Shown piece by piece: positions 25,213 through 58,320 of a stretch of DNA of 64,000 bases; positions within the stretch are counted from its first letter, which is position 1; the number at the start of each line of letters is the position of its first letter. This stretch comes from Candidatus Saccharimonadales bacterium (GTDB lineage: Bacteria > Patescibacteriota > Saccharimonadia > Saccharimonadales > UBA10212), in assembly GCA_049521895.1 (NCBI GenBank), contig JBEKOJ010000001.1, forward strand, positions 554,478 through 618,477. The letters are read 5' to 3'. The translations under genes were made by a program, and so were the position numbers. The notes under the pieces were generated by a model. That model was given only the letters and a program-made list of their open reading frames with translations. It did not search any database and was not told the origin of the DNA.

Positions 25213-25333
25213 GATTTATCATTTTCCATTTATCATTTTCCATTAATTTAACATTGACCATTGGGCATTGGCTGAAATTGTTAAATGACAAATGGAAAAT
25301 CAATGCGAAATGTGAAATGCGAAATGTGAAATG
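25213..25333. repeat. AATG/CATT-pentamer hairpin element (5' of VirB4 gene)
   Basis: ATCATTTTCCATTTATCATTTTCCATTAATTTAACATTGACCATTGGGCATTGG ... AAATGACAAATGGAAAATCAATGCGAAATGTGAAATGCGAAATGTGAAATGG; the CATT arm and AATG arm are roughly reverse-complementary. Confidence 0.6.
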
Positions 25334-25338
25334 GCTCA

Positions 25339-26241
25339 TCATGATGAGCCTTCCTCACCCACGTTGGGTTGGGGCACCGTGCTAGTGTCTTTAGTAATGA
25401 CTGGCGAACTTAAATCATCAAAGTTCTTGAGCTGCTGGCGGGTAGCGGTGTCGGGGTTGTAAGCGTCGTAGTAAAGCTCGATCAGCTCCTGGGTGTCTAG
25501 CGGCAGGCTCTGCACACCGCACTGCATCAGGCCTTGCATGACAGCTTGCACACGGTTGCGCAACTCAGTCTTGGCTTTTTCCATCGTATTTTCATCAATC
25601 ACTACGTGCGGCGTTTTATTCTTACTGAATACCTCGGTTAAACCAGTAAAAAAACTAGTGCTTTGGCGCAAGGCACTGCGGGCGTTCTCGCTGATATCCG
25701 GATAGCCAATCACCAAGTAGAATTTCTTGTCCATGATGTTAGTCTGCTGGGCGATGTCGGCCAAAAACGCTAGGTAATCTTCCATGAGCATCCCCAGCAG
25801 CATGTTATCCTGTCCTACCCTGATTTTATCCAGCTTTTCTAAATATGGGCGTAAATCAACTTTCTGGCTGCGGATGAAAATCTGCACCGGAAAATATAGC
25901 GAGTTCAAAAAGCCTTGGTAGCTAAATTCAACAGCCTCGCGTTCCTGCGGGCTCATGAGATCAAAGTTTATGGATTTGCACATAACAACCGCCCGGAATG
26001 TACCGTCGTTCATGATTACTACACCGTCGCGAACCTCGCTAATTAGCAGAGTGTTCTGGGTGCTGTTTGGGCTGGATGTGGTAGCTTTTGGTGTTGCCGC
26101 CGGGGCTGGCCCGCTGCTGGCTGGATCAGCCGGGGCAGCAGCACTGCCCGGAGCAAATTCCTCGCCGGGATATGTCGGTTGGGGTTGGCTGGCTGCTGGT
26201 TGTTGCGGCGACCTACTTGGATTCATCCCGTTAGACTCCAC
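25339..26241 (-). CDS. hypothetical T4SS-associated protein (possible VirB4 N-domain-like)
   Basis: Pro/Ala-rich N-terminus followed by TLLISEVRDGVVIMNDGTFRAVVMCKSINFDLMSPQEREAVEFSYQGFLNSL, which resembles the N-terminal substrate-entry domain pattern of VirB4/TraC; encoded between the VirB3-like and VirB4 genes. Confidence 0.3.
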   Translation of the reverse strand: MESNGMNPSRSPQQPAASQPQPTYPGEEFAPGSAAAPADPASSGPAPAATPKATTSSPNSTQNTLLISEVRDGVVIMNDGTFRAVVMCKSINFDLMSPQEREAVEFSYQGFLNSLYFPVQIFIRSQKVDLRPYLEKLDKIRVGQDNMLLGMLMEDYLAFLADIAQQTNIMDKKFYLVIGYPDISENARSALRQSTSFFTGLTEVFSKNKTPHVVIDENTMEKAKTELRNRVQAVMQGLMQCGVQSLPLDTQELIELYYDAYNPDTATRQQLKNFDDLSSPVITKDTSTVPQPNVGEEGSS

Positions 26242-26415
26242 ACAACTTTCGTACTATTAGTTAACGTCTGAAACTCAGTGATTGCTTCAGCGATCGCATA
26301 AACTTTGTAGGTTTTCTGGAGTCTAACGAGATTCATATTTTTCCACCCTAGCCCGCCTCAATTTTACAAAAGTTTTTGGCGGGTAAATTTTGATATTGCG
26401 CTACGCTCCAATACT

Positions 26416-27561
26416 TTAGTGCAGGGCGACGACAAATTCATTAGGGCTGACCTGCTGCACTTGATTATTGCGATTAGCCAAATGGGCAATTGAGGCCACG
26501 CTTAAATCATTACCGCTTTGGGCTAGCTCCAGTTTAGCAGCTTGCACCTCCGGTGTCACCTGTTGCATCTGTGTATTATTTGCCGGTTTTTGAGTGGTGG
26601 GGGCAGCCCTGTCTTTTGGAGCCGTAGGTTGGCGCGGGGATGGACCCGGTTCAGTGCCAAAATGCTTCGGGAGTTTGCTTTCAAGTTCAGCCTCCTCGTG
26701 GTGCAGGCGATCCAGTAACTGCCTTTCCTCATCCGTTAGATTTGATCCACTTTTATCGTTACCTGTGCTGGAGCCAGGAGCCACGATATTTTTACCCACA
26801 AAGGTAGTGGTGCCAGTTTGGCCATTGGCAGCCTGCTGATCTAGGAAAGTGGAGTCAACGCCCGGCTGTACGGTGGCTCCACCGGCCCGGGCAGCATCAA
26901 TTTTATCAGTGATGGCATTTTTCCGGTTGTCGTCTGCCTGTTGCATCAAAGTTGCAAACTTCTGGGCGGTGGGATTATTCTGCTCGTCTAAAATATCATC
27001 AGCAGCGCGGACATCAACCACCGGTATATCTTGGGTCAGACTGGAAGCTCCAATTAGGCGGTCGGAATCAGCTTGCTCACCCTCTAAATAACCCGGAGCT
27101 GCACCTATATCAACCGCCACGTTTTTAACAGCCCAACCGCGGCTATCCAGTGTACCCGCCAAAGCCTGCAGACGGCTGCGAACTTCTGTTTGCGATAGGT
27201 TTTTAGTGAGCTGTCTGGCGATCTTTTTTGGAGCGGTGATAGTTACCAGCTGGTTAATACCGCTTTGGTCCCAGATGCGGGTGTGTGGCTTAAAAAAGAA
27301 CTTTATGTGTGACAGCAACCACACTTCCGTGGGCTGCTCCCGGCCTAGTGGACTGGCCAAGACGCCAAATAAGGCCATCGGAGGCAAAAAGGCTAGCATT
27401 AATATCCAGCGGACGGAGCCTAGGCTATTGGCAACCAAAAAACGGAACTCCAAAAAGAGCGATACTCCGGCAATCGCCGCATAGACGAAGCTTTTTAGAG
27501 TCAGCGGCCCGACCAACTTATCTTCAGACTCAATGTCCTGAATTACTTTATATACAGCCAT
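26416..27561 (-). CDS. VirB3-like small-membrane-domain protein with a long C-terminal tail
   Basis: Two TM helices near the N-terminus (FVYAAIAGVSLFLEF ... ILMLAFLPPMALFGVLA), the usual VirB3/TcpE topology, immediately upstream of VirB4 genes; the tail is low complexity. Confidence 0.3.
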   Translation of the reverse strand: MAVYKVIQDIESEDKLVGPLTLKSFVYAAIAGVSLFLEFRFLVANSLGSVRWILMLAFLPPMALFGVLASPLGREQPTEVWLLSHIKFFFKPHTRIWDQSGINQLVTITAPKKIARQLTKNLSQTEVRSRLQALAGTLDSRGWAVKNVAVDIGAAPGYLEGEQADSDRLIGASSLTQDIPVVDVRAADDILDEQNNPTAQKFATLMQQADDNRKNAITDKIDAARAGGATVQPGVDSTFLDQQAANGQTGTTTFVGKNIVAPGSSTGNDKSGSNLTDEERQLLDRLHHEEAELESKLPKHFGTEPGPSPRQPTAPKDRAAPTTQKPANNTQMQQVTPEVQAAKLELAQSGNDLSVASIAHLANRNNQVQQVSPNEFVVALH

Positions 27562-27611
27562 AGTTTTCTACCCTTCAGTATCCGATACATAAGCGTTATA
27601 CGCAACATCTT

Positions 27612-32800: not shown

Positions 32801-32821
32801 AATGAAACTTAGGTAAATAAT

Positions 32822-35071: not shown

Positions 35072-35091
35072 GGGCTACGCTTAAGCGTAGC
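35072..35091. repeat. perfect 20-bp palindrome GGCTACGCTTAAGCGTAGCC
   Basis: Seen directly in the sequence, immediately upstream of a CATT-repeat element and the four-helix-bundle gene. Confidence 0.6.
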
Positions 35092-35092
35092 C

Positions 35093-35142
35093 ATTTTACA
35101 TTTAGCATTTATCAATTCACAATTGATTTATCATTTTTCAGC
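35093..35142. repeat. CATT-repeat arm upstream of the four-helix-bundle gene; pairs with the AATG arm at 35524-35570
   Basis: CATTTTACATTTAGCATTTATCAATTCACAATTGATTTATCATTTTT; the downstream copy in reverse complement reads ATTTAGCATTTTACATTTAGCGTTTAGCATTGATTG. Confidence 0.5.
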
Positions 35143-35523: not shown

Positions 35524-35570
35524 CCAATCAATGCTAAACGCTAAATGTAAAATGCTAAATACCGCCGAAG
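35524..35570. repeat. AATG-repeat arm between the four-helix-bundle gene and comF
   Basis: CAATCAATGCTAAACGCTAAATGTAAAATGCTAAATACCG. Confidence 0.5.
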
Positions 35571-35577
35571 GTGGTTC

Positions 35578-38512: not shown

Positions 38513-39631
38513 CTATTGGATTTTGATAGTGCGGTGCGGTTTTGGTGTAGCTGTGGTTCTGGGCGTGGTCGCAGTATATTCGGCCGGACTAGCCGGCGGT
38601 AGGTTACTCTCAGCAGCCGCAGCCAACTGACGTTTCTGGTTTCCCCGGCCTATAAACATTGAACTTCCAATGGCCGCGGTTCCAAGAACGACATAACCAC
38701 CGCCAAACCACCAGTAGCTTTTATCAACCGCCTGCTCCACGTCTACTAATAAAGTTCGTAAACTGCTCTGTAGTACGGCGTTATTGACCGATATTTTTGG
38801 CGCCAAAGTGTGAGCTGTAACTCGGTTAACAGCCCAGGCAAAAACTAGCAATACTATACCGATAGCCAGTAGTGGCCAGCCAACGCGCCTTAAGCCGGCG
38901 CGCCTAGTCGAACTCAGAAGGATAATAGCCAGCCCCACCAGCACGGTGATTATACCTAAAACTAGCGGCGTTTTCTTAACTTGTCTGTATCTGTTGGGTG
39001 CACTCTTGAGCTGGTCGGCAAACACCGATTGGTTGCTATTACCGCTCTTTATGCTTGTAGCTGTAATGATCGGGTTATCTAAAAATCCTTGCCCACCCAA
39101 GATACTGGTCTGTAAAGTGGAAGCTGCACTGGCAGCACTGATACCTTTAGGCAGGCAAGTTGCGCTGAGAGGGTCAAAATTATCAGCGCTAACAGAGGCG
39201 CTGCAAGCTGGCAGGCTAGACAACTGCTGCTGTACTAATTGTGCCGCATTACTGGCAAAAGTCGTTTTGGCGCTTGTCAGATCAATTTGGAAGTCCGGCA
39301 ACGGCGTCATGCCATTCAGCCAATCGTATATACCATCTATCGTGGCCTCAGTATTCTGTTGCACAAATTGCGGCGTAAAGGTATCAACCGCTGCCGTCCT
39401 AATAGTGCTATTGTTAAGTGAAACATTCTCTCCTCCGCCTGTAATTTGCTTGGATTGATCCAAAAGGCCTGGGACTACAGTGTTGTAGACGCCACTGTTT
39501 GCTAAGATATGCTTGATGGTCGCCGGGTGGGTGCCGATACGTATAAAGCCCACATCAATGGCTATAATGTAGAGCAGTATTACAAAAATTGGGGCTAATA
39601 ATATCAGCAAAAGTTTTCTCACAAGCCGCAT
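38513..39631 (-). CDS. hypothetical membrane protein
   Basis: N-terminal TM (LLLILLAPIFVILLYIIAI), a Ser/Ala/Thr-rich extracytoplasmic region with Cys residues, two C-terminal TM helices and a Pro/Thr-rich tail. Confidence 0.3.
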   Translation of the reverse strand: MRLVRKLLLILLAPIFVILLYIIAIDVGFIRIGTHPATIKHILANSGVYNTVVPGLLDQSKQITGGGENVSLNNSTIRTAAVDTFTPQFVQQNTEATIDGIYDWLNGMTPLPDFQIDLTSAKTTFASNAAQLVQQQLSSLPACSASVSADNFDPLSATCLPKGISAASAASTLQTSILGGQGFLDNPIITATSIKSGNSNQSVFADQLKSAPNRYRQVKKTPLVLGIITVLVGLAIILLSSTRRAGLRRVGWPLLAIGIVLLVFAWAVNRVTAHTLAPKISVNNAVLQSSLRTLLVDVEQAVDKSYWWFGGGYVVLGTAAIGSSMFIGRGNQKRQLAAAAESNLPPASPAEYTATTPRTTATPKPHRTIKIQ

Positions 39632-39639
39632 ACGCTTAT

Positions 39640-40165
39640 TGTACCAGAAGTTTGGCTATGCTACCCCTTGCATTGTTATTGACCTTCTGCAAAAAGTTCC
39701 ACTTTCTGAGTGGCGGCCCTCGTGGTACGCGGTACGAGGTCCGGCGAGTGGTGGAAGCTCGGTGCGTTGCTTAAGTAGACAACTTAGGCAGTGCTCGCTG
39801 ATGTACCGATCGCCTACCCGGTCGCGTGGACCTGGGTGTACCGCTAGATACCTCGGTTGAGCCAAATCAAGCGCAAGTTGTGCGCCGACTCTTACGCACT
39901 CTTGTGTCATTCATCAAAGTGCCTACGAAGGTCGGGCCGGGTGTCCGCTCGCCCGTCCGGTCGCGTCGAGTCGGCTGTATCGCCAATAAGCATGAATAGG
40001 CGAGTTTTGTGATTTAAGGGCGGGGACTGTCTGAGCTCTTCGCTCTTACGAAGAACTTCGACCCGGCGTACGAGGAACCGAGTAGAGCCGCTCAGCTGCT
40101 GCTCGGCGGGTCAGAGCGTTGAACTTCTCGACGGCAGCGCGATTGAGCTCTCTGTATTTGTCGCC
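39640..40165. other. GC-rich non-coding block of atypical composition (possible element remnant or structured RNA)
   Basis: About 520 bp that is visibly richer in G/C than its surroundings; only short overlapping ORFs on both strands. Confidence 0.3.
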
Positions 40166-40168
40166 GCC

Positions 40169-40564
40169 GTGCTTAGCTGCCAGAAAAGAGATTATGTGCT
40201 TAGGGCCAAATGGCTTGAAAATCACGTCGGCAGAGTTGAGACCAACAGATATAATAGACTCATGAGAATCTTCGGAATACGAGTGGTACGCTTGCTAAAA
40301 GAGTCGCCAGCAGGTGTGCGCGGCGATTTAAGCATAAGACATTTTCATAATGGCAAGATTGCAACCAAAGCAAAAGTTGGCACCGAGCTTCACAGAGATA
40401 CTAATACGTGGCAACACAGAGAACGATATATTGACATGCTTCATCAATATGATAAACATTCGTACAATGAAAAAATTATCAATCCAACAACTGGTGATTA
40501 CATGGAAAAGGATGAGGTCTACGCAGACCACAGAAAATCCAAAGGCCGAAAGCGCACTCAGTAA
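40169..40564 (+). CDS. hypothetical protein (possible degenerate HNH-like C-terminus)
   Basis: The C-terminus EVYADHRKSKGRKRTQ weakly resembles the start of an HNH motif (EVDHIiPkSkGG) but is cut by a stop; otherwise no motifs. Confidence 0.2.
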   Translation: MLSCQKRDYVLRAKWLENHVGRVETNRYNRLMRIFGIRVVRLLKESPAGVRGDLSIRHFHNGKIATKAKVGTELHRDTNTWQHRERYIDMLHQYDKHSYNEKIINPTTGDYMEKDEVYADHRKSKGRKRTQ

Positions 40565-40818
40565 CTAATTGGATACTGAACTACACACATAATTCGTCCG
40601 GCTTCCACTTGAGAAGCTGTAGTTGCTGGAGGTAGAACAATAGGTGCTTCACCAGAGCTGTATAGCGAACCTACCGTTTGTAAACACTCCTTTTGTGCAA
40701 GCTTGATGTGGTTAGTCCGTTGTATCAAGTAGAACTTAGCGCCCGTAAATACTAAAGCAACAGTTAATATCGTTACCCAAAGCATAACCACAATTGTTCG
40801 TTTCATCCCCTCGCCCAT
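40558..40818 (-). CDS. hypothetical small membrane protein
   Basis: 86 aa with one N-terminal TM helix (TIVVMLWVTILTVALVFTGAKFYLI). Confidence 0.2.
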   Translation of the reverse strand: MGEGMKRTIVVMLWVTILTVALVFTGAKFYLIQRTNHIKLAQKECLQTVGSLYSSGEAPIVLPPATTASQVEAGRIMCVVQYPISY

Positions 40819-40966
40819 AACACCTCCTTAATCTGCAAATATTATAACGCATTCAATCTACTTGCTATGAAGAGATAGTCGCCAATTAGCTTCGGGCTTC
40901 TGCCACAGCGCGTACGGGAATCCGGTCCTCCATTTCTTCGTTTGTTCTGGTAAAATAGGTCCCACT

Positions 40967-42730
40967 ATGGAGAGGAATGTAGAAGGAAACACCGGTAAGA
41001 GAGCCATCATCTACCTGCGAGTTTCAACTGCTCGTCAGGCATCTTCAGGTGGCGAAGCTGAGGGTTACTCCATCCCGGCACAACGTGAGGCCTGCCGACG
41101 TAAGGCCACCGAGCTCGGCGCTGACGTCGTAGATGAATACGTTGATGCCGGAGCTAGTGCTCGCTCAGCAGACCGGCCAGCTCTGCAAGCACTCCTAGAC
41201 CGGCTGAATGAGCAGAAAGACGTCGACTATGTCATCGTCCATAAGGTCGACCGTCTAGCCCGGGACCGAGCTGATGATGTCGCTATTGGCCTGACTATCC
41301 ATAAGGCCGGAGCGGTGCTCGTTTCAGCCTCGGAGCAGATTGACGACACGCCGGCTGGCACGTTGCTACACGGCATCATGGCGGCGATTGCCGAGTTCTA
41401 CTCCAAGAACCTGAGCCATGAGACTAAGAAAGGTCTGCATGAGAAGGCCAAGCGTGGCGGTACGCCTGGCTATGCACCACTCGGCTATCTGAACAGCACG
41501 ACCAGGGTTGATGGCAAAGAAGTCAAGGCCGTGGACCTTGACCCAGAGCGAGCACCTCATCTGCAGTGGGCCTTTGAGGCTTACGCCTTGGGCGAATGGT
41601 CAATCACCGACATCGTCGACGAGCTAGCCCGGAGAGGCATGAAGACTCGACCGACTGCAACTAGGCAGGCCATACCGCTGGTTAGAAGCCAAGTCCACCG
41701 CATCCTGAAAAGTCCGTACTACACCGGACGGCTGCCGTACCGAGGCGTTGAGTACGACGGCAAGCACCCGGCTCTGATTGACGATGAGACCTGGCAGCGA
41801 GTACAGGATGTGCTCGACGGTCGACGAATCTCGGGTGACCGCTCTTGGAAGCACGAGCACTACTTGAAGGGCACTGTTTTCTGTGCCAGATGCGACTCAC
41901 GTCTAGCTATGACCTACGCCAAAGGCCGTGGCGGTACCTACCAATACTTCTACTGCCTCGGCAGAGCTAAGAAGCGCACTGGTTGCGACCTGCCGTATCT
42001 GTTGGCTGAAAAAGTCGAGGAGCAAGTCATTGACCACTGGCGCTCGCGGAAACTGGCATCTGACCTGGTCGAACTGGTCCGCGATGTGGCTCGTGAAGAA
42101 CTGGCGGAGCAAAAATCCAAGGACAAGCAGCTGCTGGTGACCCAACGCCGGCGCTTACAGCGCCTTGAAGCTAAGCGCCAGAAGCTGATTGATGCTTATC
42201 TAGCCGAAGCTATCCCGATCGCTGACCTGAAGAAGCGGCAAGAAGCCATCGCTGTTGAGCAGCGAGATGCTGAACGCCTCATTGAGCTAGCCAACGTCAA
42301 CCACGCCTTGATCGAAGAGCGACTGGAGATTGCACTCAATCTGCTCGAGCACTGTGACCGGCTGTACATAGGAGCTAATGAGGCAGGCAGACGAGCAGCC
42401 AATCAGGCTTTCTTCGCCGCGCTGTACATGGACACTGCAGGCGTTGTTAGGGCGGAGCTCAACCCGCCGTTTGCTGAGCTCGTCGATAGAAGCATTGGTC
42501 TGGTCGACGATGACGACGACGGGCCGGAGGACGACCCAGACGGACCCGAACCCCTGGACTGGCCTAGGGAGGCCACAGGGGCGACCAGGGCGACCGTCCT
42601 GGCCTCGGCGAAGACAAACCCCCTGGCCGAGGGGTCAGGGGGTTCGGACGTCAAACTTTTGGCGGAAGGGGTGGGATTCGAACCCACGGTGCACTTGCGT
42701 GCACACCTGTTTTCGAGACAAGCCAGTTAA
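40967..42730 (+). CDS. large serine recombinase (resolvase/invertase-type catalytic domain plus recombinase domain and zinc ribbon)
   Basis: AIIYLRVSTARQ holds the catalytic Ser; there is a central recombinase domain, a Cys cluster CARCDSRL...YFYCLGRAKKRTGC, a coiled-coil QRRRLQRLEAKRQKLIDAY and an acidic tail; composition is high-GC relative to neighbours; the ORF has no stop before it runs antisense through tRNA-Ser(CGA) at 42660-42749, so the true C-terminus is uncertain. Confidence 0.8.
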   Translation: MERNVEGNTGKRAIIYLRVSTARQASSGGEAEGYSIPAQREACRRKATELGADVVDEYVDAGASARSADRPALQALLDRLNEQKDVDYVIVHKVDRLARDRADDVAIGLTIHKAGAVLVSASEQIDDTPAGTLLHGIMAAIAEFYSKNLSHETKKGLHEKAKRGGTPGYAPLGYLNSTTRVDGKEVKAVDLDPERAPHLQWAFEAYALGEWSITDIVDELARRGMKTRPTATRQAIPLVRSQVHRILKSPYYTGRLPYRGVEYDGKHPALIDDETWQRVQDVLDGRRISGDRSWKHEHYLKGTVFCARCDSRLAMTYAKGRGGTYQYFYCLGRAKKRTGCDLPYLLAEKVEEQVIDHWRSRKLASDLVELVRDVAREELAEQKSKDKQLLVTQRRRLQRLEAKRQKLIDAYLAEAIPIADLKKRQEAIAVEQRDAERLIELANVNHALIEERLEIALNLLEHCDRLYIGANEAGRRAANQAFFAALYMDTAGVVRAELNPPFAELVDRSIGLVDDDDDGPEDDPDGPEPLDWPREATGATRATVLASAKTNPLAEGSGGSDVKLLAEGVGFEPTVHLRAHLFSRQAS

Positions 42731-42749
42731 ACCACTCCTGCACCCTTCC
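42660..42749 (-). tRNA. tRNA-Ser (anticodon CGA), type II
   Basis: Reverse complement GGAAGGGTGCAGGAGTGGTTTAACTGGCTTGTCTCGAAAACAGGTGTGCACGCAAGTGCACCGTGGGTTCGAATCCCACCCCTTCCGCCA; anticodon loop CTCGAAA; a TATAAT box 12 nt upstream. Confidence 0.8.
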
Positions 42750-42981
42750 GTAACAGAGGTAATTATAGCCTACTTTTATTACTATTTTGCTATTATTAAT
42801 CTATGGGTTTGGGATTAATCAGCTTTCTCTTTACGTTAGGCGCGGGTACTTGGATTTATACTAAACTCCAGCGCTACAATGGCAACAATACCAAACAGTC
42901 GGTTATAGCCGCCGCCGTAGCCGCAGTTATCATTTTCTTAATTATGTTTTCTATTCTAAGTTTGATTATCAAAAAATAACC

Positions 42982-43380
42982 ATGGTTGAAAGCGTCTTCA
43001 CCAAAATTATCAAGGGCGAAATCCCCTGCCACAAGATCTACGAAGACGAAAAAACTATGGCTTTTATGGAAATTCGGCCGATTCAGCCGGGACACGTCCT
43101 GGTTATTACAAAAAAGCAACTTCACATCTGGGATCTGCCAGATGAAGAATATCAGGCGCTTATGAAAACGGTTAAAAAAGTTGCCGATCGTATCAGCGAG
43201 ATCCTAAAACCTAGAAGGGTTGGTATACAAGTCGTTGGGCTTCACGTTCCTGATCATGCCCACGTTCATGTTTTTCCCTTTAATTCGATGGAAGAATATC
43301 GCCATGACCCAGACTCCGATGATCCAGACCATGCAGCCCTGGCTGAAATGGCCGCAAAGCTTCGCTTTGGCAACAAGTAA
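42982..43380 (+). CDS. HIT-family (histidine triad) nucleotide hydrolase
   Basis: HVPDHAHVHVFP is the HxHxHxx HIT motif; 132 aa. Confidence 0.8.
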   Translation: MVESVFTKIIKGEIPCHKIYEDEKTMAFMEIRPIQPGHVLVITKKQLHIWDLPDEEYQALMKTVKKVADRISEILKPRRVGIQVVGLHVPDHAHVHVFPFNSMEEYRHDPDSDDPDHAALAEMAAKLRFGNK

Positions 43381-43679
43381 AGAGTAACTGGAAACTAGTT
43401 AAGCCACTAGCCTTACAATGCCAATTCCTTGTTACTAGTTCCTAGTTTCTGGTATCATATGGCTATATGCCCGGTAGTAGACTTTCGAGCCAGCTCGCCA
43501 CCCATGTAGGTTATTATTCGACACTGGAACCTAGCATACATTACCGGTATACAGATAAAGAGGGCTTGCCTGACGAGCTGGAGCTTCAAGGATATGTCGA
43601 ATAATCTCGAAAGCTCACTACCGGGTATGAGGTGGAGAGTTGAGAGTTGTTACTATTGCGAGAGTCAGCTCAACTCTCT

Positions 43680-43780
43680 AATGAACAAATGCGACAAATG
43701 TTCAATGTTCAATGAATGTAGCAATGGCCAATGGCCCAATGCATTGTCCATTCGTCCATTTGTCCATTCGTTCATTGCCT
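43680..43780. repeat. AATG/CATT-pentamer hairpin element (5' of the HTH-HAD gene)
   Basis: AATGAACAAATGCGACAAATGTTCAATGTTCAATGAATGTAGCAATGGCCAATGGCCCAATGCATTGTCCATTCGTCCATTTGTCCATTCGTTCATTG. Confidence 0.6.
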
Positions 43781-43795
43781 CCGTAGGAGGCGCCC

Positions 43796-44644
43796 ATGGA
43801 TGAAAAGACCTTAGGCCACAAACTTCAATTGGCCCGTAAGCAGGCCGGCCTGACGCAGCAACAGCTCTGCCAAAAAGCTGGCCTTTCCTACTCTACGCTG
43901 GCCAAAATTGAGCGTGGCGCTATTCGTTCCCCATCTGTTTTTACGGTCGCATCAATCGCTTCTGCCACTGGTGTTCCTCTGACAGACCTGCTGGGTACGA
44001 ATGTACATAGCTCCCCAGCCCTGACGCCCGCTAAAAAGCGCTCCAAAAACGGCGTCACTTTTGTTTATTTTGACGTCAATGGTACCTTGGTGTGTTTTTT
44101 TCATAGAGCCTTTACCGAAATTGCCCGGGCTTGCGGCCAGCAACCCGACTTTGTGGAAACGCTTTACTGGCGCTACAACGATGGTATCGTCAGGGGTGAC
44201 ATGAGCCTGGAGAAGTTCAATGCCGCGCTTGGCAAAGAACTGGGGTTAGATGATTTTGACTGGCAAAAATACTATATGGCCAATGTCGAGCCGGTACCTG
44301 GAGTAGAAGAGTTTGTCGAGTGGGCGGCACAGCACTACGAGGTTGGTCTAATTAGCAATAACATGCCTGGGTTTATAGATGAAATGATCCACAACAAAAT
44401 TGTTCCTGATGTGAAATACACAGTAGCCATCGATTCCTCAAAAGTTGGAATCATCAAACCCGAGGCCAAAATTTACGAGCTGGGCCAGGAGATGGCCGCC
44501 GTAGAGCCTCGTGAAATCCTGCTGATAGACAACGAACGACCCAACCTAATAGCGGCTGACCGCGCCGGCTGGCAAGTAATTTGGTTTGACGACCTTGACC
44601 CCGAAGACAGCATTGAACGCGCCAAAGCGGCCCTAGAGTTCTAG
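43796..44644 (+). CDS. XRE-family HTH domain fused to a HAD-superfamily hydrolase domain
   Basis: N-terminal LGHKLQLARKQAGLTQQQLCQKAGLSYSTLAKIERG (XRE HTH); HAD motif I FDVNGTL, motif III-like SSKVGIIKPE and a terminal acidic DD. Confidence 0.6.
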   Translation: MDEKTLGHKLQLARKQAGLTQQQLCQKAGLSYSTLAKIERGAIRSPSVFTVASIASATGVPLTDLLGTNVHSSPALTPAKKRSKNGVTFVYFDVNGTLVCFFHRAFTEIARACGQQPDFVETLYWRYNDGIVRGDMSLEKFNAALGKELGLDDFDWQKYYMANVEPVPGVEEFVEWAAQHYEVGLISNNMPGFIDEMIHNKIVPDVKYTVAIDSSKVGIIKPEAKIYELGQEMAAVEPREILLIDNERPNLIAADRAGWQVIWFDDLDPEDSIERAKAALEF

Positions 44645-47586
44645 AGATTTTGTAGGATTTTTTGTAATTGCTCTATTTTTTGCCCGGCTTCTGCTAGGTC
44701 TTTCTCGGTTTGTTCAATCAATTCTTTCGGTGCCTTCTCTTTGTATCCAGGCTTCTTCAGGCGCGCACTAAGGGCACTCTCTCCGGTTTGTGCCTCTTTG
44801 AGCTTTACCTCCAAACTGACTTTTGCTTCGGTCGCATCCACATCCAGCCGGCAGTCAAGATTAACAGAGATTAACCGCAAGCCACCGGCATAACCAGGCG
44901 GCAGCTCTTTAATTTCTTTCAGGCCGGCTAGCTTCGCCACCAATTTGGAATTTGCTGTCATATCGGGGGCAGGTTGGTGGTAGAGCGTATCTGCTCTAAT
45001 GCCGCTCATAGCTTTTAGCCAGCGCACCTCGGTGATTGTCAATTTAAGGCCTTCAAATTTGTTAGCTTCGGTCTTGTCAGAGTCAATAATCTTCGGCCAC
45101 TGCTCGCTGATCAGCATAGTGTCATGCCAGCCCAACTGCTGCCAGACGGTCTCAGTCACAAATGGTGCGAACGGATGGGCTAGTTTTAGTGTTTGATCAA
45201 GCACATAAGCTAATACTGAAACGTTTGGAACAGTTTTGCTGGCCTCTACGTACCAGTCGGCTAGATCGTCCCACACAAAATGATAAAGCGCACTGTAAGC
45301 CTCGCCGAATTTAAAGTTGCCTAAGTCGGCGGAAATCTCTTTTGCGGAAATACTTAACTTGTTAAGTATCCAATGGTCAACCGGACTTTTTGGCTCCGCC
45401 TCACCCCTGTAATCTTCGCCAACGACCCCCTCAATGTAGCGGGCGATGTTCCATAGTTTGTTGCAGAAATTGCGGTTGGCGACAATTCTGGCCAGACCTA
45501 AACGCTGATCATTCCCTGCCCCGGTACCACTAATTACCGCCAGTCTCAACGCATCTGTGCCATATTGCTTGATCACGTCCAGCGGATCAATGATCGTATC
45601 AGGGTCGCTTTTGCTCATTTTTTTGCCAGTTTCGGTGCGCACCAAACCGTGTAAGTAAACCGTTCTAAACGGTATCTGGCCTGTCACATAGGTGGTAGCC
45701 AAAATCATCCGGGCTACCCAAAAGAATAAAATGTCATATGCAGTCTCTAAGACATCTGTTGGATGATAGCTTTTAAAGTCAACGCTGCGCTCTAAGAGAT
45801 CTTCCAAAGACAAGGAGTAATCTTCGGCAAGTTTGGGATCAATCAGCGTGCTCCAGGTCCACAAGGCCGAGGAAAACCAGGTATCCAGTGTGTCCGGATC
45901 CTGTTTCCACCCCTGCCCTTCCGGAGGCAGTACTCCAACGTAAATTTCGTCCTCTATTTCCTTAGGCTCAAAATCGTACTCATAAACCCAAATCGGGTAG
46001 TCCAAGTCCATCTGCCTTTCGGGATGATACTTTTTTAACGCGGCAATCAGTTCACTGGGGTCCTTATAGACCACAAAGTGGGCTTTATCGGCAAGATCAA
46101 CCTTTTCCACTGTAGTTTTTTGGACACTTTTGATAGTAATTTCGCCAAAAACTATTCCGGTCTGGCTATTTTCAACCAGAATTTTATCACCTGGCTTATA
46201 GCCGTAATCCTTTTGTCGATAGGTTTTAGTCTTACCATTAAGCATTTGGTTCATAACAGTTTGGTCAAAACCCATTACTGGCTGGTTGGTCTTTTTGTAC
46301 CACACTGGTATCTGGTGCCCCCACCAAATCTGCCGGCTTATACACCAGTCACGCAAGTTGTCTATCCAGTGATAGTAAATTTTCTCAAAGCGCTTGGGAA
46401 TAATCTTGATATCGCCATCTTCTACCACGGTGCGCATAACTTCGCGGAATGAGCGCATCTGGCCCTTCCACTCCATAGCCGGCCGGTTAACATCCACAAA
46501 CCACTGCAGCATTATCTGTGGCTCAATAACCCCTTGGCCACGACTGTTCAGGGCGATGCTGTGGCTATAATTTTCATCAACATCCACCAATAAACCTTTG
46601 GCCTTCAGCTTCTTGACGATTTTCGGACGGGCCTCCTCGATACCCATGCCGGCAAACTCGCCGGCTATAGGTAGCAATTTACCCTTATAATCTATAATTT
46701 GCTCCCGCTCTAAACCGTGGCGCTCCGCGATCTCAAAATCAGTGCGATCGTGCCATGGTGTGATGGTCATCACCCCTGTTCCAAACTCCGGATCAACAGC
46801 CTCATCTTTAACGACAGTAGCTGTTACTGTACCGTTAAGCCACTCAGTCTCAAAAGTCTGGCCATCACTATAATGCTTGTAGCGCTTATCTTCGGGGTGT
46901 ACCACCACGTATTTATCGCCAAATTTTGTTTCCGGGCGGGCAGTACTTATCTGGAAAGGGCCGTATTGCAAAGTGTAAAGCGGAGCCTTTTCTTCTTTAT
47001 AATCCACTTCATCGTCAGACACAGTAGTTTCCAGGTTAGGGTCCCAGTTTACAATACGATGACCCCTGTAAATCAGTCCGTCTTTGTACATCTTTGTGAA
47101 GACTTCGTTAACCGAGCGGCTTAGCGAATCGTCTAGAGTGTAACGGAAGCGACTCCAGTCGCAGCTGGCCCCCATGGCCCGCATCTGCGATATCATGGTT
47201 TCTCGGTTACTGCCCGCGAACTCCTTGACTTTGGCGATAAAGGCCTCGCGGCCGATCTGGTGTTTGTCGGTCCCCTGCTCTACTAGCTGTCTTTCAACCA
47301 CGGCGTTGGTGGCAATGGCGGCGTGATCGGTACCGGGCAGCCAAAGTGCATCTTTACCCTGCTGGCGGGCGTGCCGGATCATAATATCTTGTAGGGTTAG
47401 GAAAAGCGCTCCTCCCATATGCAACGTGGAGGTCTCGTTGGGTGGTGGCATGCTGATAGAAAAATGCGGTTTAGGACTGTTGGGATCGGCCTTAAAGGCC
47501 CCGCTCTTCTCCCATCTGGTATAGATGCCAGCTTCATATTCGGTAGGATTGTAGGTTTTAGGCAGTTTCATCCCATTAAACCTCAA
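44641..47586 (-). CDS. valS: valine--tRNA ligase
   Basis: PPPNETSTLHMGGALF (HIGH-type), KMSKSDPD (KMSKS), a C-terminal coiled-coil; 981 aa; the real start is probably MKLPKTYNP. Confidence 0.85.
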   Translation of the reverse strand: MRFNGMKLPKTYNPTEYEAGIYTRWEKSGAFKADPNSPKPHFSISMPPPNETSTLHMGGALFLTLQDIMIRHARQQGKDALWLPGTDHAAIATNAVVERQLVEQGTDKHQIGREAFIAKVKEFAGSNRETMISQMRAMGASCDWSRFRYTLDDSLSRSVNEVFTKMYKDGLIYRGHRIVNWDPNLETTVSDDEVDYKEEKAPLYTLQYGPFQISTARPETKFGDKYVVVHPEDKRYKHYSDGQTFETEWLNGTVTATVVKDEAVDPEFGTGVMTITPWHDRTDFEIAERHGLEREQIIDYKGKLLPIAGEFAGMGIEEARPKIVKKLKAKGLLVDVDENYSHSIALNSRGQGVIEPQIMLQWFVDVNRPAMEWKGQMRSFREVMRTVVEDGDIKIIPKRFEKIYYHWIDNLRDWCISRQIWWGHQIPVWYKKTNQPVMGFDQTVMNQMLNGKTKTYRQKDYGYKPGDKILVENSQTGIVFGEITIKSVQKTTVEKVDLADKAHFVVYKDPSELIAALKKYHPERQMDLDYPIWVYEYDFEPKEIEDEIYVGVLPPEGQGWKQDPDTLDTWFSSALWTWSTLIDPKLAEDYSLSLEDLLERSVDFKSYHPTDVLETAYDILFFWVARMILATTYVTGQIPFRTVYLHGLVRTETGKKMSKSDPDTIIDPLDVIKQYGTDALRLAVISGTGAGNDQRLGLARIVANRNFCNKLWNIARYIEGVVGEDYRGEAEPKSPVDHWILNKLSISAKEISADLGNFKFGEAYSALYHFVWDDLADWYVEASKTVPNVSVLAYVLDQTLKLAHPFAPFVTETVWQQLGWHDTMLISEQWPKIIDSDKTEANKFEGLKLTITEVRWLKAMSGIRADTLYHQPAPDMTANSKLVAKLAGLKEIKELPPGYAGGLRLISVNLDCRLDVDATEAKVSLEVKLKEAQTGESALSARLKKPGYKEKAPKELIEQTEKDLAEAGQKIEQLQKILQNL

Positions 47587-47957
47587 AGACTTTCATTGTT
47601 GATTGATATGACGAAGCGGGCAGGCGATTCAAGACGCCATTGATGGTACGGAAGTTAAGTGAGGTTCTAACGGGATTCATAAATGCTAACAGCATTATAA
47701 CAGAGGTGGATATATAAAGACCATCGCCTCTGTTATTTGACTGGTTTCACGTGAAATTGGGCAACATTCAACAAATCTTTTCACCTGAAAAGACTTCTCA
47801 AAAAACGCCCAATACTGGCTTTTGTTTTCTTGCCCCGCATTAAATCCTGAGCGGAGTAGTCTGCAATCAGACTACGAAGCTTCAAGATTTTGGTACTGGG
47901 GTACCGCCCGTTTTTGTTTTCAATCTAAGCTTAACAACTATGTGTGATGCAAGCAAG

Positions 47958-49082
47958 TCACATCTGTAAACCAGGGTCTATTTCTTGAGAAAAAGGATCG
48001 GCTGTTGGCCGCTTGTTGCTAGCCTGATAGTAGGCTTTGGCGGCTATCATTGCGGCGTTATCAGTACAGAGCTTAACATCCGTGTAAACTGGCTTGGGCA
48101 CTAGCTTGTCTGCTTGCACTCTAAGTTCCTGATTGGCGGCCACGCCACCGGCTATAACTACACTTTTGGGGTTGTAATCATCAATGGCCTTTACCAGGGC
48201 ATCTATAAGAGTTTCTATAGCCGTAAATTGGAAACTGGCTGCCAGGTCGGCTTTTTGGGTCTTACTTAGTATTTTCGGCAGGCCAAAGGAGGGGAAGGTG
48301 AAATCTTTACCTGCCATCTGTTGGGCGGCCCGCAAAACAGCCGTCTTGAGGCCGGAAAAACTAAAGTCATAAGGATTTTGTAAGTTGGCCTTGGGCAGCT
48401 TTACAGCTTTTGGGTTCCCAGCTTGGGCAGCCTGGCTGACAGATGGGCCGCCGGGGTAGGGTAGCCCCAGAATTTTAGCGACTTTATCGAAAGCCTCACC
48501 TACAGCGTCATCGGCGGTCTGGCCCAGAACAGTGTAACCAAAGTGAGCTTTAAAGAGAACTAGCTGAGTATGGCCGCCTGAAACTATCAAAGCTAACAGA
48601 GGGAAACCGGGTGCTTTAACTGGCAAACTGTAGCTAGGCAGGGCAGTGGACGTAATGAAGTTGGCGTAAACGTGCGCTTCTACGTGGTTAACAGCGTACA
48701 ACGGCTTGTTTTTGCTAATTGCAAGGGTACGAGCAGTCAGCACGCCAATTAGTAGGCTGCCACCTAGGCCGGGTCCATAAGTAACACCTATGGCATCAAT
48801 CTGATCCCAAAGATCAGGTTGAGAAACTGGGAACTGGGAACTAGGAACTAGCTTGTTTCTTGTTACATGTTTTTTGTTTCCGAAAGCATCTTTCAACGCT
48901 TGATCTATTACCTGAATGATGCTTTCTATGTGGCTGCGGGCAGCAATTTCCGGCACCACGCCGCCGTAAGCGGCGTGCAGGTCAACCGAGCTGGCGACGA
49001 CATTTGATAGAAGTTTTTTACCATCCTCAACTACCGCGGCAGCTGTCTCATCGCAACTGGTCTCGATACCAAGCACTCTCAT
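47958..49082 (-). CDS. tsaD: tRNA N6-adenosine threonylcarbamoyltransferase TsaD (Kae1/Gcp family)
   Basis: MRVLGIETSCDETAAAVVEDGKKLLSNVVASSVDLHAAYGGVVPEIAARSH is the conserved TsaD N-terminus with metal-binding His residues. Confidence 0.85.
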   Translation of the reverse strand: MRVLGIETSCDETAAAVVEDGKKLLSNVVASSVDLHAAYGGVVPEIAARSHIESIIQVIDQALKDAFGNKKHVTRNKLVPSSQFPVSQPDLWDQIDAIGVTYGPGLGGSLLIGVLTARTLAISKNKPLYAVNHVEAHVYANFITSTALPSYSLPVKAPGFPLLALIVSGGHTQLVLFKAHFGYTVLGQTADDAVGEAFDKVAKILGLPYPGGPSVSQAAQAGNPKAVKLPKANLQNPYDFSFSGLKTAVLRAAQQMAGKDFTFPSFGLPKILSKTQKADLAASFQFTAIETLIDALVKAIDDYNPKSVVIAGGVAANQELRVQADKLVPKPVYTDVKLCTDNAAMIAAKAYYQASNKRPTADPFSQEIDPGLQM

Positions 49083-51720: not shown

Positions 51721-51723
51721 CAA

Positions 51724-51840
51724 GCATTTAACATTGGACATTTAGCATTGAACATTAATTTAACAGGTAACATTTTCCAGACATTGATAAATGAAAAGTG
51801 ATAAATCAATGAAAATTGTGAAATGTAAAATGATAAATCT
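51724..51840. repeat. AATG/CATT-pentamer hairpin element in the groES-groEL spacer
   Basis: CATTTAACATTGGACATTTAGCATTGAACATTAATTTAACAGGTAACATTTTCCAGACATTGATAAATGAAAAGTGATAAATCAATGAAAATTGTGAAATGTAAAATGATAAATC. Confidence 0.6.
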
Positions 51841-51861
51841 CGACTGAAAGGAGAGTTTTAG

Positions 51862-53541: not shown

Positions 53542-53652
53542 CCTATTTTGCATTTGGACTGAGGCTTAAACGGCAATCACCAGGATATTTTTAATCCTAA
53601 TGTTGCTTTAGTGCCAAATTCATTCTAGAATACAATCACCTGCAGGATATAT

Positions 53653-54372: not shown

Positions 54373-54420
54373 CCATTCCCGCTTTTGTTTACTCTTATAG
54401 TCCGGGCGTAAAATTAAAAT

Positions 54421-55318: not shown

Positions 55319-55319
55319 T

Positions 55320-55448
55320 TATCATTTAACACTTGTCAGTCTTCAATTATTTAGTAATTAACATTCTTCATTGTAAGACATAAGCATATTTTGGTAAATG
55401 TAAAATGCTAAATAAATGTGAAATGTGAACTGAAAAATGTAAAATAAG
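55320..55448. repeat. AATG/CATT-pentamer element (5' of the PGI/PMI gene)
   Basis: ...AACATTCTTCATTG ... GGTAAATGTAAAATGCTAAATAAATGTGAAATGTGAACTGAAAAATGTAAAATAAGG. Confidence 0.55.
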
Positions 55449-55451
55449 GTC

Positions 55452-56917: not shown

Positions 56918-56935
56918 GGATCAGAAACTCGGCTA

Positions 56936-56967
56936 AAATTACTTAACAAGTTAAGTATTTACTCTCC
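56936..56967. terminator. bidirectional hairpin AAATTACTTAACAAGTTAAGTATTTAC between convergent genes
   Basis: An imperfect 11-bp stem flanked by an A-tract and a T-tract; same core as the comF terminator. Confidence 0.4.
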
Positions 56968-58188
56968 TCTTAGAGCGTCAATGGGGCTTTTACGGGCAGC
57001 CTTGAGTGCTGGCACTACGCTAAAGATAACCCCCACGGCTACCGATACGCCCACAGCTAGTACCATCACCGGCACGGTAATTACCGGCTGCAGATTGGTG
57101 TAGATACGCAGTATGCCAAAGATTAACAGGGAAGCAGCAATCCCGAGTATTCCGCCGCCAACGCTTAGCACCAAACCCTCCACCAGGAACTGGTTAAGGA
57201 CCTGGCGGTTAGTAGCTCCGACGGCTTTTCTAATGCCGATTTCGCGGGTACGCTCCGATACACTGACCAACATGATGTCCATGATGCCGATACCGCCAAC
57301 CAATAGTGAAATGGCAGCGATACTGGCAATAAAACCAGTCAATTGGTTAATGACACCGCTGGCGATATTGAGCAGCTCGTATTGTTTAAGGACCGTGAAG
57401 TCGTTCTGTCCTTGGTGAGTACTTAGCAGGACTCTGTTTACATCGGCTACGGTAGCGTCCAAGTTGTTAACATCCTTGGCCTTAACCAGTATCTGCAAGA
57501 TATTGTTGTTGCCGCTGGCTAGCTCCTCTGCCGGTTGTAGGGGAATGAAAATGGCCGAGTTAAAATCAGTCTCGGCTACGGACAACAGGCTGACGGATGA
57601 TCGGGCCAACACGCCCTGCACCAAAAAGGATCGCCCCGAAATGGTCAGCGATTGTCCTACTGGATTAAGCTCACCGAAAAGTTGCTGGGCTACATCGCTA
57701 CCGATAACTGCATTTTTTTGGTCAGGACCGCTCTGGTCAAAGAAATCTCCATATTCCACGCTTTCCGGTAGTATCTGGCTGATATCCGGCGTAGTACCGA
57801 TAACGAAAAGGTTATTCAGCTGTTTGCCATCGGCTTTGGCACTGCTGGTCACGAAGTCCATCGGCGCTACGGCGCTAACCGATGGCAAATGGCTGAGGCT
57901 GGTGGCGTCTTGGTCGGTCAGGGTGCTGGCACTCAAAAATGCCAGCAGGTTCAAGCTGCCAATTTCACTATTGGCCGTGCGGTTGACCAAATTTCCCGAG
58001 CGTACGGTAATGACATCGCGTCCAAGATGGTTGATTTGCCCGACGATTTGCTGTTTTAGGCCCTCCCCTAAACTCACCACTGTGACTACCGAGCTGATGC
58101 CAATAATGATACCCAGCATAGTGAAGAAACTGCGCCATTTGCTACGGCTAAGGCTGGCGATGGCAGTTTTAAGGTTGCCGCTCCACAT
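56959..58188 (-). CDS. ABC transporter permease, FtsX/MacB-like
   Basis: N-terminal LKTAIASLSRSKWRSFFTMLGIIIGISSVV and a C-terminal FtsX domain (GIRKAVGATNRQVLNQFLVEGLVLSVGGGILG); start moved to MWSGNL (58188) because the 40 upstream codons of the tracked ORF translate a repeat element. Confidence 0.75.
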   Translation of the reverse strand: MWSGNLKTAIASLSRSKWRSFFTMLGIIIGISSVVTVVSLGEGLKQQIVGQINHLGRDVITVRSGNLVNRTANSEIGSLNLLAFLSASTLTDQDATSLSHLPSVSAVAPMDFVTSSAKADGKQLNNLFVIGTTPDISQILPESVEYGDFFDQSGPDQKNAVIGSDVAQQLFGELNPVGQSLTISGRSFLVQGVLARSSVSLLSVAETDFNSAIFIPLQPAEELASGNNNILQILVKAKDVNNLDATVADVNRVLLSTHQGQNDFTVLKQYELLNIASGVINQLTGFIASIAAISLLVGGIGIMDIMLVSVSERTREIGIRKAVGATNRQVLNQFLVEGLVLSVGGGILGIAASLLIFGILRIYTNLQPVITVPVMVLAVGVSVAVGVIFSVVPALKAARKSPIDALRGE

Positions 58189-58206
58189 CAGGCGTCTCCT
58201 TCGGAG

Positions 58207-58320
58207 GCATTTACCATTGACCACTGACCATTGACCATTAATTTCCCAGGTAGCATTTGCCATTGAGGAAACGAAAAATGAGGAATAAATGTTAAATGTG
58301 AATTGCAAAATGTGAAATGG
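58207..58320. repeat. AATG/CATT-pentamer hairpin element between the ABC ATPase and permease genes
   Basis: CATTTACCATTGACCACTGACCATTGACCATTAATTTCCCAGGTAGCATTTGCCATTGAGG ... AAATGAGGAATAAATGTTAAATGTGAATTGCAAAATGTGAAATGG. Confidence 0.6.

Follow-up and report, generated by a model that had tools for sequence, protein, structure and literature searches.

Intergenic heptamer-array palindromes in a Saccharimonadales genome and their relation to cassettes carrying four-helix-bundle genes

The stretch analysed here (the window, 64 kb) is part of contig JBEKOJ010000001.1 of a Candidatus Saccharimonadales bacterium (assembly GCA_049521895.1, positions 554,478 to 618,477). It has a GC content of about 47%, tightly packed genes and an A-rich sense strand; its GroEL shows 72-80% identity to the GroEL proteins of 80 GTDB species, of which nearly all bear the label Saccharibacteria or Saccharimonadales, and 21.7-kb stretches identical to it are present on metagenome contigs. 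Two kinds of feature concern us: mirrored arrays of CATT and AATG motifs between genes, and two genes, hb1 and hb2, encoding four-helix-bundle (4HB) proteins, each of which lies between inverted arrays of 7-nt units. The six sites (seven arms) at which an initial annotation had placed CATT/AATG arrays all carry them; the gene-less elements among them are called e1, e4, e5 and e6, and an element of opposite polarity e3. Comparison loci from relatives, metagenomes or plasmids bear L-numbers (L002, L087, L158 and so on).

Clusters of the motifs, scored as 50-nt segments with at least four CATT or at least four AATG, number 5 and 6 and are confined to these sites, against 0.30 and 0.42 expected and a maximum of 3 in first-order Markov simulations; the overall CATT count of the window is unremarkable (279 observed, 273 expected). 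The repeat unit had been read as a pentamer, but its true period is 7 nt: Tandem Repeats Finder (TRF) returns 7 or 14 at every site, with the units head to tail, as in the heptanucleotide long simple sequence repeats (LSSRs) and short tandemly repeated repetitive (STRR) sequences. A gene-less copy consists of seven phased CATTTNN units, of which the fifth is irregular (CATTNATTTNN), a loop of 10-40 nt and seven mirrored NNAAATG units, about 120 bp altogether. The core CATTAATTT(A/C)(A/C)CA, noticed earlier as common to several copies, proves to be this irregular fifth unit, CATTNATTTNNCA, and is found throughout the family. At e3 the polarity is opposite to that of the other sites, an AATG array being followed by a CATT array, and this order recurs in a gene-less copy in L013. 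At e4 the sense strand carries the CAGGT unit, at e6 the antisense strand.

The elements occupy the whole of the spacers in which they lie. At e1 the stop codon of the open reading frame (ORF) 25339-26241 (minus strand) lies on one side, and on the other are the Shine-Dalgarno (SD) sequence and start (25197) of a gene for a VirB4/TraG-like ATPase; e5 takes up almost all of a 164-nt divergent spacer. TRF finds in each arm of e1 a perfect 14-nt x2.2 tandem duplication; the two do not complement one another, so each arm has evidently expanded on its own. Paralogous elements within the window are mutually about 60-65% identical. On six other contigs of the same organism e3-e6 are identical, the strains being too close to inform on slippage. 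The junctions of e1, e4, e5 and e6 and of the cassettes described below show no target-site duplication, the exact ends being undefined by any close empty site. At e6 the ORF lister had extended the permease by 40 codons (449 amino acids from a TTG start, against 409 from the ATG at 58188); the earlier suspicion of this extension was right, as the true start is the ATG at 58188, preceded by AAGGAG, and the added codons are an artefact.

The 4HB gene hb1 does lie between two arms, as first described. Its homologues number 144, and the named sources are all Saccharimonadales or Patescibacteria. Four of these homologues, 53-63% identical and from four loci, were examined with their surroundings (upstream of comF; between genes for polynucleotide phosphorylase (PNPase) and uracil-DNA glycosylase (UDG); next to a gene for Hsp20; and between two glycosyltransferase-type genes), and in each of the four the left side has CATTT heptamers and the right side AAATG heptamers, with the stop codon of the gene falling within the right arm. 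The initial annotation had missed a second cassette, that of hb2, an inverted repeat of GAGCYGA heptamers unlike the arms of hb1. All three hb2 homologues examined, two of them syntenic (L091, L093) and one elsewhere, likewise have arms of AGCT-core heptamers. Three more distant 4HB homologues (L118, L119, L135) are followed downstream by a CATT array; L118 has, in addition, an AATG array upstream of its gene, which matches the polarity of e3. Searches with hb1 and hb2 found no relatives on viral contigs, and tblastn with both against the 80 groEL loci of relatives found no 4HB gene; such genes are therefore sparse at those loci.

The arms of the gene-less elements and those of the hb1-type cassettes are homologous. 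When an nhmmer profile is built from e1, e4, e5 and e6 only, it matches the left and the right arm of all hb1-type cassettes examined (window, L087-L090). In e1, e4, e6 and the copy in L020 the left arm stands in register with the cassette arms, irregular fifth unit included; that of e4 aligns so with the cassettes of L089 and L088, and the string CATTAATTTAACAGGT is common to the gene-less left arms and the L089 cassette arm. The same profile finds gene-less copies in L020 (in the groES-groEL spacer and upstream of the gene for phosphoglucose isomerase, PGI), L011 (weakly) and L090, and has no match in about 75 other relatives.

Metagenomes were scanned with a pattern of four left-arm units, which matched more than 118 stretches; of these, 80 loci were fetched, and 22 of them hold 30 full-length gene-less copies, with GC contents of 38-58% and none from the genome of the window. 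Their length is narrow, mostly 110-135 nt. An alignment of 32 copies gives seven CATTTNN units, a loop and seven NNAAATG units, with the fifth unit CATTNATTT and, mirrored, AAATNAATG. This fixed arrangement of 7+7 units in register, with its conserved irregular unit, confirms that we are dealing with a lineage-restricted repeat family and with more than AT-rich low complexity. The cores carry 1.55 bits of information and the spacer letters 0.28 bits, and the same is true of the right arm, which lay outside the search pattern. All but two of the 30 metagenome copies (28) overlap no ORF of 90 or more amino acids, and the two overlapping ORFs look spurious. The features of the window are collected in Table 1.

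Table 1. Array elements, 4HB cassettes and junction hairpins in the window
Feature	Position	Strand	Structure or setting	Matches and remarks
Left arm of hb2 cassette	16592..16618	+	Five AGCT-core heptamers: GAGCTGA GAGCCGA TAGCCGA GAGCTTA GAGCTGG	Overlaps dnaN stop
hb2, 4HB gene, 119 aa	16639..16998	+	Between dnaN and recF	PF05635 E 3.4e-32; TIGR02436; NF008912
Right arm of hb2 cassette	16975..17001	+	Overlaps hb2 3' end	Ends 1 nt before recF ATG
e1, gene-less palindromic element	25213..25333		CATTTNN units, irregular unit CATTAATTTAACA, loop, NNAAATG units	nhmmer E 1.7e-32
GC-rich mini-hairpin	35073..35092		GGCTACGC-TTAA-GCGTAGCC	Abuts left arm of hb1 cassette
Left arm of hb1 cassette	35092..35142	+	CATTT heptamers	23 nt 91% complementary to 35532-35554
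hb1, 4HB gene, 120 aa	35161..35523	+	Loop position of cassette	PF05635 E 4.6e-17; TIGR02436 E 1.1e-22
Right arm of hb1 cassette	35524..35561	+	AAATG heptamers	Begins at hb1 stop codon
Mini-hairpin	35562..35574	+	CCGCC-GAA-GGTGG	Pairs SD of ComF-like gene (start 35578)
e3, reverse-polarity element with good stem	43680..43780		AATG array, then CATT array	
Anti-SD/SD mini-hairpin	43777..43791	+	GCCTCC-GTA-GGAGGC	In front of HTH-HAD gene (start 43796)
e4, gene-less element	51724..51840		Fills groES-groEL spacer	nhmmer E 6.5e-27
e5, gene-less element	55320..55448		Fills divergent spacer between 171-aa gene (start about 55288) and PGI/PMI gene (GTG 55452)	nhmmer E 6.6e-26
Anti-SD/SD mini-hairpin	58196..58206	-	CTCC-GAA-GGAG	In front of permease start (e6)
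e6, gene-less element	58207..58320		From ABC ATPase stop (58328) to SD/start (58188) of MacB/FtsX-like permease	nhmmer E 1.2e-29

The arms had been described as mutually complementary and able to fold into a long imperfect hairpin. That description goes too far. Against dinucleotide shuffles the fold z scores are -4.8 for e3 (taken as 43655-43798), -2.4 for e1, -1.0 for e4, -0.55 for e5 and +0.6 for e6. A stricter null, in which the CATT/AATG cores are fixed and only spacer letters are shuffled within each arm, leaves e3 at -1.9 and places e1 (+0.95), e4 (-0.73), e5 (+0.23) and e6 (+1.82) no better than chance, so that the hairpin potential of these four is a by-product of mirrored cores of 4-5 nt. 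Nor does the alignment supply the conserved structure, backed by covariation, that a structured cis-regulatory RNA should have: RNAalifold finds 0 pairs in the 32 copies, and an explicit mirrored structure pairs 70.3% of cells, a value reached or exceeded in 495 of 500 shuffles. Over the 14 mirrored spacer pairs 33.8% of cells are paired, compared with 40.9 ± 2.0% when permuted (0 of 2000 permutations as low), and the surplus of A-A and T-T combinations suggests drift of the spacers towards the composition of the local strand. The sole hint of covariation comes from the single N of the irregular unit (56% vs 42%, P about 0.04). The gene-bearing cassettes are different. By the core-kept null, hb1-type cassettes give z scores of -5.3 (window), -2.9, -6.7 and -5.3, with L090 (+1.45) as the exception, so that the arms form a real stem, complementary in its spacer letters, in four of five; the hb2-type cassettes give -5.1 (window), -1.3, -5.7 and -2.8.

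At orthologous spacers the elements are present in some taxa and absent from others. Most of the 80 relatives have a groES-groEL spacer of about 15 nt; six taxa, scattered over the GroEL tree, have there palindromic elements of 95-150 nt, built of heptamers with differing cores: CATTT in the window and L020, CAGTT/AACGG in L010, CCGTT in L014 and ACAGA in L016 and L066. The spacer upstream of the PGI gene carries an element in the window, L011, L020, L117 and L158, and in other relatives a promoter-like region of about 95 nt. L158 thus has an orthologue of e5, and it lacks one of e4 (its groES-groEL spacer is 21 nt). At the site of e6, where the ABC and FtsX genes of relatives abut or overlap, an apparently orthologous element is present in L179. 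The e5 orthologue of L117 is 80.9% identical, loop included, and flanking coding DNA about 72%. Orthologous elements (70-81% identity) resemble each other scarcely more than unrelated members of the family do (72-78%), since the cores dominate, and a shared loop is seen only in e5 and L117; we therefore do not use orthologue identity as evidence of constraint. The groES-groEL spacers of L056, L071, L078 and L083 hold a different conserved element of about 100 nt, GGGAAAAGAGCAGCC...GTTTGTCTCATTACCCGAA, which is not heptameric and could be an unknown structured RNA.

The initial annotation had placed the elements directly 5' of start codons. Within the window they do end 3-21 nt from a start, but the upstream stop codon is equally close, at 5 nt for e1, 3 nt for e4 and 7 nt for e6. 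Most metagenome copies likewise lie 0-25 nt from both adjacent genes. Their neighbours are co-directional in about 13-14 cases, divergent in 2-3 and convergent in 1 (L169); one copy is directly upstream of a tRNA gene (L121), two are at rpsL and rpsG (in L161 between the two), and three occupy consecutive spacers of one operon. Closeness to start codons mostly reflects tight gene packing. Some junctions bear small hairpins of their own. GC-rich ones comparable to that beside the left arm of hb1 abut elements in L087, L090, L116, L117 and L131, and the hairpin over the SD of the ComF-like gene has a syntenic counterpart in L087, CTTCC-ACA-GGAGG. The hairpins at 43777-43791 and 58196-58206 are the only perfect anti-SD/SD hairpins before real gene starts in the 64 kb. 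The small SD-pairing hairpins at three element junctions could plausibly have local effects on host genes.

The gene-less elements, then, form one family, share homologous arms with 4HB cassettes whose own arms make stems, lie between genes and come and go among relatives in the manner of insertions. We consider it probable that they are miniature derivatives, a cassette minus its gene, of a cassette with heptamer-array arms that resembles the intervening sequences (IVSs) of 23S rRNA, rather than a dedicated 5'-untranslated-region (5'-UTR) switch; as miniatures of a larger unit they may be compared with MITEs (miniature transposable elements with inverted repeats) or with REPINs, the doublets of repetitive extragenic palindromic (REP) sequences. 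A cassette would enter, as a unit whose mobility we infer, the gap of a few nucleotides that separates a stop codon from the following ribosome-binding site, and the closeness to start codons would arise because this gap is the only place where a compact genome tolerates insertion. The element would be co-transcribed with its host genes and, if the Coxiella IVS is a guide, the stem of gene-bearing copies may be cut by RNase III. In gene-less copies the stem would have decayed and only the phased CATT/AATG cores would be retained; the factor maintaining them would read the 7-nt phased motif and not a helix. The prime candidate for such a reader would be the cognate 4HB protein, whose relatives form pentameric rings. 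A stoichiometry of one pentamer on five heptamers was considered and set aside, as hb2-type left arms have about 5 units but other arms have from 3 to 39. Side effects of the elements on host genes are likely at some sites, and e5 probably supplies promoters: it fills a divergent spacer, so both promoters must lie within it or very near it.

Several points weigh against a derivation from mobile cassettes. Neither target-site duplications nor near-identical copies were seen, and with window paralogues at only about 60-65% identity recent mobility is not shown. No catalytic activity is known for the 4HB protein, and the cassettes are accompanied by neither a transposase nor a recombinase; RNase III cleavage and binding of the repeat by the 4HB protein are steps that we infer by analogy. 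Cores that are kept while spacers are randomised are poorly explained by a purely selfish, decaying relic and speak for a possible function in place, as does the e5 orthologue, which (at 81%) is more conserved than the coding DNA flanking it (72%). The conservation of the cores is itself partly an ascertainment bias, the copies having been found by a core pattern and a profile. Finally, heptamer arrays with other cores occur with no 4HB gene nearby, even within coding loops, and a general process of heptamer slippage must therefore also be at work in this lineage.

The first interpretation of the elements, as a hairpin in the 5'-UTR acting as a translational switch or thermometer, belongs to a wider explanation in which a transcribed leader or intercistronic hairpin controls the translation, temperature response or stability of the downstream gene. 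Such a cis-acting regulator could draw on the position of every window copy just ahead of a start codon, one of them before groEL, on the three SD-pairing junction hairpins (43777-43791, 58196-58206 and 35562-35574), which have similar counterparts in L087, L114 and L178, and on the proposal that start-codon heptamer repeats in Beggiatoaceae and Nostoc are translational regulators (PMC4679880; bioRxiv 10.1101/2022.06.06.494920). We nevertheless hold it to be quite unlikely, for the lack of conserved pairs and covariation in the 32 copies, with spacers that are if anything anti-complementary, and the fold energies of e4, e5 and e6 at shuffle level leave little room for a conserved hairpin. The orientation of the elements to transcription is inconsistent, one copy lies between convergent genes and one before a tRNA gene, the downstream genes (groEL, rpsL, rpsG, trxB-like, PGI, permease, virB4) share no common functional theme, and most relatives have no element in the same spacers. 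Neither a thermometer nor a structured 5'-UTR switch finds support in these results.

The initial annotation had also suggested a promoter module. An explanation at the level of DNA, in which phased AT-rich motifs serve as promoters, as UP-like elements or as arrays bound by nucleoid or regulatory proteins, and have been co-opted by host genes, would suit the conserved cores and drifting spacers, and the 21 bp of three heptamers make two helical turns. Promoter activity is logically required at one site, e5, which replaces a promoter-like motif, AATCATTTACAATTATAG, of relatives, and promoter-like sites lie inside e5, e6 and the left arm of hb1; but within the elements neither promoter-like matches (23 vs 20.1 ± 4.5 and 21 vs 15.3 ± 3.8) nor terminator-like ones exceed shuffle expectation, most copies lie within operons, a setting that requires no promoter (e4 between groES and groEL, the L161 copy between rpsL and rpsG), and no candidate DNA-binding regulator was identified, so that this too seems unlikely. 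Least of all do we believe that these are ordinary heptanucleotide microsatellites of the LSSR/STRR type, produced by replication slippage, with neither identity as elements nor function and with their inversion incidental. Period 7 is the commonest class of long simple sequence repeat (SSR) in prokaryotes (Mrazek 2007, summarised in PMC4679880), each arm of e1 carries its perfect duplication, the clade holds many heptamer arrays with unrelated cores, translated ones in TsaD and an ArgRS-like gene among them, and heptamer copy number varies between strains of Coxiella (PMC4990558). Slippage alone is very unlikely to have given the fixed 7+7 units and narrow length, an irregular fifth unit conserved in both arms over 32 copies from different genomes, a homology to 4HB-cassette arms that extends beyond the motif, and the recurrence of the same core with the same 4HB subfamily at unrelated loci. 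Two further candidates were discarded outright: CRISPR, as the period is 7 and there are no spacers of that kind, and intrinsic terminators, as no GC-rich stem with a T-tract occurs at the elements.

The derivation from an IVS-like cassette draws on a system that has been studied by experiment. The IVSs in the 23S rRNA of Leptospira, Coxiella burnetii, Xanthomonas and Brucella also hold a gene for a 4HB protein of about 120 amino acids in the loop of an inverted-repeat stem, have tandem heptamers adjoining the ORF, are sporadically distributed and have gene-less counterparts in the form of hairpins of about 100 nt. In Coxiella the S23p ORF lies in the loop and the stem is cut by RNase III, at the first repeat; 2-3 GACAGAT heptamers, variable in number between strains, precede the S23p start, and the IVS is viewed as a selfish element of unknown mobility (PMC4990558). 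Of the functions proposed in the initial annotation, a processing site comes nearest to this sole experimentally studied relative, which RNase III excises without religation, as shown for Coxiella only (PMC4990558). The annotation had noted arms on either side of hb1 without making the connection to IVSs. Judged by the features of an IVS, hb1 and hb2 each place a PF05635 ORF within a stem, and e1, e3, e4, e5 and e6 have no such ORF. Whereas IVSs are inserted in helices 9, 25 or 45 of 23S rRNA, all the copies here sit in spacers between protein-coding genes, often within operons; they have arms of about seven phased heptamers and many dispersed gene-less copies, in which the stem is not conserved. 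An Rfam scan of the whole window at gathering scores found five tRNAs only and no rRNA gene, and insertions in the rRNA of Saccharibacteria are nearly all short, without introns or homing-endonuclease genes (PMC11270868).

The remaining likenesses are more partial. A resemblance to REP sequences had been denied, which is true superficially, but dispersed intergenic palindromic doublets, together with a gene flanked by inverted copies and a repeat specific to the gene subfamily, parallel the REPINs and their REP-associated tyrosine transposase (RAYT, or TnpA-REP). The protein here is, however, a four-helix bundle, with matches only to PF05635/TIGR02436, and not an HUH/Y1 transposase like those of IS200/IS605, and the repeats are highly diverged heptamer arrays rather than near-identical clusters of a single palindrome of about 35 nt. 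MITEs are likewise short, intergenic and polymorphic in presence, with gene-less copies that share terminal inverted sequence with a longer gene-bearing element; in place of unique terminal repeats and a transposase, the elements here have motif-array arms and a partner that encodes a 4HB protein only. Heptanucleotide LSSRs, such as cyanobacterial STRRs, the Xanthomonas GGGAATC (frequently in convergent inverted pairs), Beggiatoaceae TAACTGA and Nostoc TTTTGAA repeats, are also intergenic and often near starts, but are without the fixed architecture, conserved irregular unit, degenerate spacers and 4HB-gene association seen here. In Xanthomonas about 70 inverted pairs of GGGAATC arrays have been described, tied to no protein (PMC4692102); in Beggiatoaceae, TAACTGA repeats precede start codons (PMC4679880). 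PF05635 is related to Avd (PMC10053308), the pentameric nucleic-acid-binding accessory protein of diversity-generating retroelements, which shares its fold and family; unlike Avd systems, the 4HB genes of the window adjoin no reverse transcriptase, template repeat or variable repeat.

The pairing of 4HB genes with inverted arrays extends beyond Saccharibacteria. A tblastn search of plasmids with hb2 gave 18 records, almost all cyanobacterial. Six plasmid 4HB genes that were examined lie between operon genes (cas6/cas4, cas10/cmr3, ribonucleotide reductase subunits), and five of the six are flanked by inverted tandem arrays, of the heptamers GGTGACA, GGGAGTA, AGGGTGT and AAGGGAA and of one 8-mer. 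On two plasmids, each surveyed over about 50 kb (one complete, the other 50 of 56 kb), the 4HB gene alone is flanked by inverted period-7 arrays. Our literature search found no paper linking heptamer arrays to 4HB genes. The plasmid pANA02 of Anabaena sp. 90 (L101), which carries a stand-alone 4HB gene flanked by long GGTGACA arrays, has in addition a short TTGGTAA array (4010-4028) between the reverse transcriptase and avd of a diversity-generating retroelement.

A bolder generalisation, which we offer tentatively and think rather doubtful, is that stand-alone PF05635 proteins are sequence-specific binders of phased heptamer arrays, matched by subfamily, and that the gene with its inverted arrays is an unrecognised self-propagating cassette, whose gene-less offspring would include the Saccharibacteria elements and many of the heptanucleotide repeats of cyanobacteria, Xanthomonas and others; alternatively, protein and arrays would make up a post-transcriptional regulon. 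If true, this would join three loose ends: the origin and mobility of rRNA IVSs, the function of the very widespread S23p/TIGR02436 4HB proteins and the excess of heptanucleotide repeats in bacteria. It comes with concrete protein-repeat pairings, hb1 with CATTT/AAATG and hb2 with AGCT-core heptamers, and dozens of natural gene-less copies stand in essential operons (groESL, rpsL-rpsG) of the streamlined genomes of the candidate phyla radiation, where effects on expression should be measurable. The elements matter in practice as well, since they mislead gene callers, as with the spurious permease codons, and probably break assemblies, many of the contigs bearing homologues being very short.

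Heptamer arrays with other cores were met at several further places. In tsaD (47958-49082, minus strand) two adjacent arrays, (AACTGGG)3.6 and (CTTGTTT)4.1 at 48825-48880, are translated, inserting about 22 amino acids into the loop that joins ...QALxDA to WDxIDAI; the insertion is absent from most relatives, and L010 (2041-2086) and L013 (7292-7361) have different heptamers at the same spot. An arginyl-tRNA synthetase (ArgRS)-like gene of relatives carries in-frame arrays at one loop, just after the YxQYAHAR..SIL motif, with a species-specific unit: AAATCCC in L031 (15174-15206), AGTCGAC in L020 (11958-12019), AGCCCTC in L061 (20164-20191), AACCACC in L051 (18750-18777) and CAAAATC in L008 (19288-19305). 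In the close relative L007, AACTAMA arrays that are direct and not inverted (12162-12194 and 12296-12325) stand immediately upstream of the PGI start and again some 100 nt into the gene; their unit is similar to the TAACTGA of Beggiatoaceae.

Ahead of e3 is a promoter-like site (TTGTTA-18-TATCAT, with TG) whose spacer contains a TTCCTAG heptamer array (43425-43447). The site lies upstream of an unannotated region of about 200 nt (43462-43680), closed by a long-range 23-nt stem of 83% complementarity (43467-43489 with 43606-43628). The region has no Rfam match and may be a small RNA, whether 6S-like or of another kind. This arrangement recurs in L008 and L011 with different heptamers. The valS leader (47829-47903, minus strand) is non-coding, forms two neat hairpins and is 82-85% identical in L158 and L173, where a segment like it immediately adjoins a CATTT-type element; it matches no Rfam family, T-box included. 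Rfam scans by E-value of 43380-43800 and 47560-47980 returned nothing credible.

In the region 10823-11387 a 29-nt inverted repeat containing ATTGCAAAT, with GCGATCGC on one side, encloses an ORF of 162 amino acids (10865-11353, minus strand) that has a Cas2-like domain of PaaX type; this may be a pair of autoregulatory operators or a further small cassette. Two further differences between close strains are strain-level insertions or deletions: the window and L002/L004 have a large serine recombinase gene (40967-42730, in a region of about 39600-42800) beside tRNA-Ser (42660-42749), L003, L005 and L006 have a different gene in its place, and a methyltransferase gene (61042-61683) is missing from the same three loci.

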